Source: a virus. From it: a stretch of DNA of 64,000 nucleotides. Positions 42,090 through 42,295 of the stretch are shown here, one piece after another. How positions within the stretch are numbered: position 1 is the first letter of the stretch; each line of letters opens with the position of its first letter. The notes below the pieces were generated by a model. It worked only from the letters and a program-made list of their open reading frames with translations. It was not told the origin of the DNA and searched no databases. The position numbers were made by a program, and so were the translations under genes. The DNA lies in the IMG/VR virus record IMGVR_UViG_3300005805_000042; one strand, 5' to 3'.

Positions 42090-42295
42090 AAAATGGAAAC
42101 CCCCCCTCTACGCTCACCGTAGTTTTAGATTTTACTGGGCATAATTTACTGTCCACCTGTTGACATGCACATCAGAGCAGGGTCCATCACAGAGTACCTT
42201 GGGTCATTTGTAACTTCTTTATGGTTGCGACCCATTTAAAGCCAAGGTTCCTTTCAACGGTGCTAATCCGTCTTCTGTAAGGGGTTTTCCATTTT
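42090..42295 (-). ncRNA. Candidate structured ncRNA (about 205 nt)
   Basis: Terminal stem AAAATGGAAA/TTTCCATTTT; inner CACCGT/ACGGTG and ACCTTGG/CCAAGGT. Confidence 0.6.

Follow-up and report, generated by a model that had tools for sequence, protein, structure and literature searches.

The tRNA islands of phages harbour several classes of conserved structured RNA, among them GOLLD, ROOL and the stable RNAs of T4 and T5, none of which has a known function. The species 1 and 2 RNAs of T4 and the RNA1 and RNA2 of T5 are small stable RNAs made on common transcripts with phage tRNAs and set free when these tRNAs are processed. Another motif, freshwater-1, is attributed to Weinberg et al. 2017 (NAR 45:10811, PMC5737381). 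ROOL and GOLLD, which are phage or prophage RNAs found near tRNA islands, form 8-mer D4 and 14-mer D7 cages, and OLE forms a dimer (PMC12286853); the same paper cites as a precedent the pRNA of phi29, a three-way-junction phage RNA that makes rings by loop-loop pairing between copies. Kissing loops and GNRA contacts also assemble manA and other RNAs of less than 200 nt, some of them from phages, into cages, trimers and filaments (Ren et al. 2026, preprint, 10.64898/2026.07.01.735769).

In this report, we analyzed an RNA of about 205 nt encoded in a 64,000-nucleotide stretch of viral DNA (IMG/VR record IMGVR_UViG_3300005805_000042, hereafter the window). The window is part of the genome of a large tailed phage of lake water. 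Besides genes for the major head protein, the portal and the large terminase at 9-19 kb, it contains a group I intron and over a dozen tRNA genes; the RNA is present as a single copy on the minus strand. Our main finding is that this RNA has about three times the length of the 62-nt Rfam model of freshwater-1 and is conserved from end to end. An earlier sequence-only reading had described the element as unassigned, overlooking that its core is a catalogued motif (RF02979). We consider it virtually certain that the element is a real RNA gene and that it encodes, in full length, a phage RNA with a freshwater-1 core. The combined reading, namely a full-length freshwater-1 phage RNA that is processed from a tRNA operon and probably self-associates, appears to us reasonably probable as a whole.

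The family itself is not new, since its core is a known Rfam motif. As far as the literature searched shows, what is new is the architecture of the complete RNA, its tight linkage to tRNAs, its occurrence in RNA libraries and the palindrome-preserving covariation of a loop. Indeed, our search found no description of a tRNA linkage of freshwater-1 or of covariation in palindromic loops; freshwater-1 was not found as an RNA motif either, and the main text of PMC5737381 does not contain that name.

A full-length RNA around the freshwater-1 core

Scanning with cmscan matched RF02979 over model positions 1-62 of 62, with 74.3 bits against a gathering score of 72 and an E value of 2e-15. The copy carries the UGUGAUGGAC tail, the hairpin with an internal loop (CCUG-CUC...A-CAGG) and the adjacent second hairpin, the latter containing the one non-standard pair of the consensus alignment. 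A permissive Rfam scan of 41800-42700 (E<=10), which included the 6S (RF00013) and 6S-Flavo (RF01685) models that the sequence-only reading had proposed to run, returned neither of these two, nor RNase P, tmRNA, Y RNA/YrlA or any ribozyme family. Freshwater-1 is the sole Rfam family found there besides tRNAs and three weak, well sub-threshold and unrelated matches outside the RNA, and no tmRNA was called by ARAGORN.

Homologues were collected with an exact 19-mer of the core, which retrieved 49 viral contigs, and with looser patterns that added 35 and then 22 further viral contigs; in metagenomes, more than 120 contigs were found among the matches listed. The collection comprises more than 150 viral and metagenome contigs, from lake, freshwater and estuary metagenomes. 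Every one of them shows a conserved block of about 190-215 nt, compared to the 62 of the Rfam model. A covariance model of the whole RNA (R1, 208 positions) matched the window once, at 42296..42088, with 209 bits and an E value of 2e-56. Elsewhere it also found one copy per locus, except on one contig with two paralogues.

Among three matches in the genome_contigs collection, two (L050 and L051) are probably phage contigs that ended up in the bins of metagenome-assembled genomes, and the third (L052) was discarded as a chance 19-mer in G+C-rich DNA. In cultured phages (GenBank phage collection, 50,697 phage records), no match was obtained by blastn with the RNA, using 11-base words, or by tblastn with a neighbouring ORF of 670 amino acids. 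No credible host homologue was found in 150 genomes from the phylum of MAG G002, which carries a copy; the weak matches in host genomes (E 0.03-0.9) lie in unannotated DNA, one locus being instead an ordinary tRNA. Twenty ORFs neighbouring the RNA at 10 loci contained no recurring protein family. One phage ORF that adjoins the RNA (L006:2667-3677, plus strand) encodes a type IX secretion sorting domain (Por_Secre_tail), which points to a Bacteroidota host for that phage.

The sequence-only reading had taken the element for a discrete non-coding RNA lying between tRNA-like genes, G+C-richer than its surroundings and devoid of a credible ORF. All of this is borne out: the G+C content is 44-46% compared to 22-35% in the flanking coding DNA, no credible ORF is present, the two tRNA-like genes are where they were placed (Table 1), and conservation, covariation, position in a tRNA operon and presence in RNA libraries all speak for a discrete RNA.

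Table 1. Coordinates in the window of the RNA, its helices and the neighbouring elements
Feature	Coordinates	Strand	Remarks
Candidate operon promoter, TTGACA-17-TATAAT, 12/12 matches	43311..43339	-	Consensus scan only; upstream of tRNA-Met and of the downstream RNA genes
tRNA-Leu(UAG)	42482..42401	-	Same RNA-gene run as the ~205-nt RNA
tRNA-like gene with 30-nt D-loop insert	42297..42394	-	Rfam tRNA 33.7 bits; last base 1 nt before P1
Full-length RNA, ~205 nt	42090..42296	-	5' end near 42296/42295, 3' end near 42091/42090
P1 5' strand, closing rod	42280..42295	-	Pairs with 42107..42090; 13/14 P1 pairs compensatory
P2 5' strand, UACAG	42275..42279	-	Pairs with CUGUG 42192..42188; 100% of cells paired
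P3 hairpin, GACGG-AUUAGCA-CCGUU	42256..42272	-	Conserved 7-nt loop; 4/5 pairs compensatory
P4 arm	42197..42247	-	P4 CCUUGG/CCAAGG, P4b CUUU/AAAG, P4a AUGG/CCAU; 5/6 P4 pairs compensatory
Part covered by Rfam freshwater-1 (RF02979)	42130..42191	-	3' strand of P2, 5' strand of P8, P5/P5a, P6
P8 5' strand, UGGA	42183..42186	-	Pairs with UCUA 42129..42126; 100% of cells paired in the 57-copy set
P5 CCUG/CAGG with inner hairpin P5a	42156..42181	-	Rfam structure; apex GUGCAU 42170..42165
P6 hairpin, loop GUAAAUUA	42136..42155	-	GNRA-like loop start; 4/6 pairs compensatory
P7 hairpin, CUACG-GUGAG-CGUAG	42108..42122	-	GNRA-like pentaloop; 4/5 pairs compensatory
P1 3' strand	42090..42107	-	G run forms a small bulge in the window's copy
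tRNA-Leu-like frame, ~69 nt replacing the anticodon arm	41957..42084	-	Rfam tRNA 37.8 bits; begins 6 nt past P1

A multibranched fold and its covariation

RNAalifold, applied to the alignment of 31 copies, predicted 46 pairs, of which 27 show compensatory changes. This fold was refined by hand to nine helices and tested on 57 distinct copies, in which standard pairs occupy 95.3% of cells, compared to 29-44% when the partners are slid by one to three columns. Compensatory changes affect 33 of the 51 pairs, and the values observed for pairing and compensation were reached in none of 500 shuffles, so that the covariation analysis proposed in the sequence-only reading finds the structure conserved in relatives. 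By itself, the fold of the single sequence is weak evidence, as it is only modestly better than that of shuffled sequences (z of -1.8 for the minus and -2.8 for the plus strand), and it is the comparison with relatives that decides. The strand is the minus strand, since conserved G.U pairs (U.G at P2 in 45 of the 57 copies, G.U at P3 in 56) would be A.C on the plus strand.

In the RNA, P1 is the closing rod and leads to a four-way junction (P1/P2/P8/P7), from which P2 and P8 each open into a three-way junction. P1, which corresponds to the pairing of the ends over about 18 nt that was noticed in the sequence alone, is 11-14 bp long across copies. P2 is stacked on P1 and leads to the three-way junction with P3 and the P4-P4b-P4a arm; its innermost pair is GC in 35 and UA in 22 copies, and the variants UACAU/AUGUG, UACGG/CUGUA and UACUG/CAGUG occur. 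The ACCTTGG/CCAAGGT pairing of the sequence-only reading is recovered as P4 (42247..42242 with 42202..42197), followed by P4b and P4a, whose covariation is seen across 46 distinct interiors. The arm also contains a 3'-side internal loop with a conserved AUG, and in the window's copy it ends in the loop GUCGCAA (42231..42225). Two other pairings proposed in that reading are not conserved: CACCGT/ACGGTG gives way to the two covarying local hairpins P3 (GACGG/CCGUU) and P7 (CUACG/CGUAG), and GGGTC/GACCC exists only in the minority of members that have an RUCGCAA loop.

The second three-way junction is enclosed by P8 (UGGA/UYYA) and holds P5/P5a and P6. Among close relatives the changes in P8 are one-sided; in divergent members its inner three pairs covary between GC, AU and UA (GGU/ACC, GAU/AUC, GAUA/UAUC). 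P5 is the CCTG/CAGG hairpin of the sequence-only reading (42181..42178 with 42159..42156); it is taken from the Rfam structure, since it does not vary in any of our sets, an invariance due in part to search patterns that fixed P5. P6 has a second loop type in relatives, GGAACAAA. P7 closes the central four-way junction and is absent from one subfamily.

Beyond the helices, a purine in J3/4 covaries with a pyrimidine in J4/2 (AU in 25, GC in 22 and AA in 11 copies), and several unpaired segments are invariant, namely GAAAG in J3/4, AUGGAC, the L3 loop AUUAGCA and the A-rich J6/8. Three loop pairings, between L3 and the P4a loop, between L3 and L7, and between L7 and the class-2 P4a loop, are complementary in some members; they show no covariation and were not adopted. 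We also found larger natural variants: one lacks the whole P3/P4 arm, its P2 being capped by a 6-nt loop (L076:7908-8036, minus strand), another has a partial internal duplication of P3/P4 (L149:2347-2620), and in a third the P4 arm is enlarged by some 45 inserted nucleotides (L154:9018-9271). The existence of forms without the P3/P4 arm or without P7 indicates that the RNA is modular.

Setting in the tRNA operon and expression

In about 90% of copies, a tRNA or tRNA-like gene has its 3' end only a few nucleotides from the 5' end of the RNA (0-6 nt before P1), and often a further one begins 2-10 nt past P1. Among some 117-118 distinct contexts, 93 have a tRNA called by ARAGORN that ends -4 to +6 nt from the first P1 nucleotide, and in 12 more, that of the window among them, a T arm and acceptor like those of a tRNA stand just before P1. 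The upstream tRNAs are of at least ten different kinds, Leu-UAA and Gly-UCC being the commonest. On the other side, a tRNA starts -2 to +10 nt after P1 in 53 of 115 contexts, and a terminator follows the RNA in one. Three contexts (L108, L125 and L163) have no tRNA fusion and carry a promoter of their own, TTGACA-N17-TATCTT, located 35-40 nt upstream, which would place the start of transcription at the P1 base.

This arrangement makes tRNA-linked processing very likely. The RNA would be transcribed together with the adjoining tRNAs and excised by the host tRNA-processing enzymes. Its ends would be set at the base of P1 when RNase Z or RNase P acts on the neighbours, or else by direct initiation, and P1 would then protect both ends of the excised RNA. 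In the window, the candidate promoter at 43339..43311, just upstream of tRNA-Met (43297..43221), likely marks the start of the minus-strand RNA operon and may drive the whole run. Its perfect sigma70 consensus fits poorly with the Bacteroidota host suggested by other members of the family.

The neighbouring RNA genes have unusual features of their own. In the tRNA-like gene just upstream of the RNA, which ARAGORN does not call, the D-loop insert forms its own hairpin (GGAGUACUCAUAUGAUACUCC). The tRNA-Leu-like frame downstream has the acceptor AGUCAGG, a Leu-type D arm and a perfect T arm, and metatranscriptome contigs exist in which this frame is joined to other inserts, with joints that skip 74-96 nt and have 21-71 other letters between them. 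Directly upstream of tRNA-Leu lies a structured RNA of about 150 nt (42488-42637, minus strand), closed by GGUUGGUAGU/ACUACUACCAAC, with an MFE of -48 kcal/mol and z -2.9; no Rfam family matches it, and the heptamer of the class-2 P4a loop recurs in it as AUCGCAA. Another RNA-like element of 69 nt (41800-41868, minus strand) resembles a tRNA in its acceptor and T arm (GGCCCGU...ACGGACC; z -3.6), and is called neither by ARAGORN nor by Rfam. More distant from the RNA, a group I intron (32019-32235, plus strand; RF00028, 72.9 bits) is located about 0.8 kb upstream of the plus-strand tRNA array, and two tRNA genes (33989-34065, plus strand, and 43458-43530, minus strand) have irregular anticodon loops according to ARAGORN, which reports them as 'tRNA-???' with two-letter anticodons.

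Sequences of the RNA are present in metatranscriptomes. One of them holds a contig of 207 nt that reproduces 42091..42297 from end to end without a difference. Another RNA study yielded contigs of 100 and 101 nt that are identical to segments inside the RNA, and two more studies contain close relatives. Expression is thus partially supported, DNA carry-over being possible in such libraries; the ends of the contigs are a hint rather than a measurement, as these are assembled contigs and not reads. The flanking coding parts 41900-41953 and 42494-42700 have zero cover in four RNA runs, to which we give no weight as evidence.

Palindromic loops and possible modes of action

In a mutual-information scan, one pair outside the helices ranked near the top. 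It is formed by two adjacent positions of the P4a loop, which are GC in 33 and AU in 25 copies, with one exception. The loop reads A(G/U)-UAGCUA or A(G/U)-UAAUUA, and the swap between GC and AU toggles between palindromes. Divergent members have the palindrome UCAUGA, and a few have the wobble form UAGCUG; all are self-complementary. There are near-identical RNAs that differ only at these positions, for example L007/L018, L027/L054 and L072/L081. In a tree of 92 of these short RNAs, built with the loop masked and poorly resolved, the GC/AU state changes at least 21 times, against about 29-34 with shuffled labels; these switches could in part reflect recombination between two old alleles. The apex of P5a reads GUGCAC in most members, often within a loop of 5-7 nt, and in others GUGGCCAC, GUGCGCAC, GUCGAC, AUGCAU or UGUACA.

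About a quarter of the members (some 20 of 87 interiors), including the window's copy, have instead a non-palindromic class-2 P4a loop of 7 nt, RUCGCAA, which reads GUCGCAA in the window. The P5a apex of that copy, GUGCAU, is self-complementary only if a G.U wobble is admitted. The signature of a symmetric kissing loop, that is, adjacent positions that covary while the palindrome is kept, is therefore found in the family and weakly in the window's copy. The two paralogues mentioned above (L110:1-183 and L110:852-1059) are about 670 nt apart on one metagenome contig; one is canonical with a class-1 loop, and the other is divergent, with a class-2 loop, GAU/AUC in P8 and no P7. Their coexistence raises the possibility of mixed assemblies.

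As adjacent nucleotides cannot pair within one chain, pairing of the same loop between two molecules is the simplest reading of the P4a covariation. Kretsch et al. 2025 (PMC12286853, section 8) reasoned in the same way for L9.3 of OLE and L21a of GOLLD, and in both cases symmetric kissing loops are seen by cryo-EM. In the present RNA, the apical loops of P4a and P5a would make loop-to-loop contacts between identical copies, and the RNA would work as a homodimer or larger homo-oligomer, as do OLE, ROOL and GOLLD. We give self-association through P4a and P5a, predicted from the comparison of sequences, an even chance. As a working guess, the assembly might be an RNA-only or RNA-centred particle acting on the translation or tRNA machinery.

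The palindromes could also be sites for dimeric proteins, or be incidental, in a monomeric RNA that binds a phage or host protein or acts as a decoy or sponge. The many invariant unpaired nucleotides would suit such a role, as would the non-palindromic P4a loop in a quarter of the members, and OLE is an oligomeric RNA that binds proteins as well; the absence of a recurring protein family among the 20 neighbouring ORFs scanned and a covariation of adjacent loop positions that is most simply explained by RNA-RNA pairing between chains make us regard a protein-binding monomer as rather unlikely. The sequence-only reading had likened the RNA loosely to 6S, an RNA polymerase decoy aiding the early-to-late sigma switch; such an RNA would mimic an open promoter and sequester the host RNA polymerase holoenzyme. 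The likeness is confined to the size of about 200 nt and the long closing helix. Neither 6S model matched in the scan described above, and the covariation-backed fold, with its four-way and two three-way junctions, has no central bubble and is not a bubbled rod, which agrees with the reservation expressed in that same reading that the branching did not fit canonical 6S. A rod-shaped mimic is also hard to square with a subfamily without P7 and a natural variant without the P3/P4 arm, and we hold such a decoy to be extremely improbable.

Location among tRNAs brings to mind two other roles. The RNA might be catalytic, for example a minimal RNase P-like RNA or self-cleaving ribozyme that helps to process the phage tRNA array; many junction nucleotides are conserved, and ACAGAAnnCGGAUUA, UGAAAG and GUAAACU are short look-alikes of conserved regions of RNase P. 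We rejected these look-alikes: their strand order is unlike that of RNase P, the GUAAAC loop is not universal, being replaced by GGAACAAA in many members, and the CR-V-like CGG segment forms the local covarying hairpin P3, so that no RNase P-type P4 pseudoknot (CR-I/CR-V) is made. Since, moreover, no RNase P or ribozyme family was matched at E<=10, and copies with their own promoter or terminator need no self-cleavage, catalysis is highly unlikely. A comparably slim chance attaches to the RNA being a passive part of the tRNA operon without an independent function, either a spacer or an element for processing and stability. It does occupy the gap between two tRNA-like genes, whose processing would release it; ordinary spacers in these tRNA arrays, however, measure 5-10 nt, whereas here conservation extends over more than 200 nt, including invariant loops and junctions, in numerous phage lineages and beside tRNAs of at least ten kinds, and the RNA also occurs with a single neighbouring tRNA or its own promoter. 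Mimicry of a CRISPR repeat, suggested by the GUUGAAAG tail and a Cas12a-like UCUAC/GUAGA stem, was rejected because the sequence of the P7 stem covaries freely.

Returning to self-association, we tentatively propose a more detailed possibility, that the RNA is a compact counterpart (about 200 nt) of GOLLD and ROOL, in which two different self-complementary loops together with GNRA-type contacts would build a closed symmetric homo-oligomer (a dimer, a dihedral ring or a cage) acting on tRNAs or the translation machinery during infection, and in which members with the RUCGCAA loop would use a different contact at that site. The palindrome-preserving changes lead to a concrete and cheaply testable prediction, self-association via two identified loops. 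If it is true, a small RNA found in nature would have quaternary contacts that look designed, and it would offer a tractable model for the role of the RNAs of phage tRNA islands. The RNA is abundant in lake phages, and its small size makes in vitro work easy. For annotation, a complete secondary structure backed by covariation now replaces a fragment of 62 nt, and the Rfam model could be extended from 62 to about 205 positions.

How does this RNA compare with known systems? With freshwater-1 it shares the lake, freshwater and estuary origin, and its centre matches the Rfam model from end to end. That model contains two hairpins and a 5' tail, which in the complete RNA turns out to be made up of the 3' strand of P2 and, next to it, the 5' strand of P8; the RNA described here adds P1, P2, P3, the P4 arm, P7 and P8. 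Like the T4 species 1 and 2 RNAs and the T5 RNA1 and RNA2, it lies inside a phage tRNA operon and is bounded by tRNA processing sites; it differs from them in size and fold, and blastn revealed no similarity against the phage records searched. No similarity was found to the pRNA of phi29, which relies on a pair of different, complementary loops and has its own early promoter in small podoviruses. The RNAs of the manA type are likewise short, and two GNRA-like loops are present in our RNA too; manA, however, belongs to another family, is a putative cis-regulatory element of 5' UTRs, and makes its contacts between different loops rather than identical ones. The closest parallel in possible working is with GOLLD, ROOL and OLE. 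These RNAs are matched here by a phage-encoded RNA that resides in tRNA islands, as ROOL and GOLLD do, and that has an ornate covarying fold with palindrome-switching loops. The RNA is three to four times smaller and gave no match to the OLE, ROOL or GOLLD models in the region 41800-42700 at E<=10, so that the resemblance is one of possible working and not of membership.
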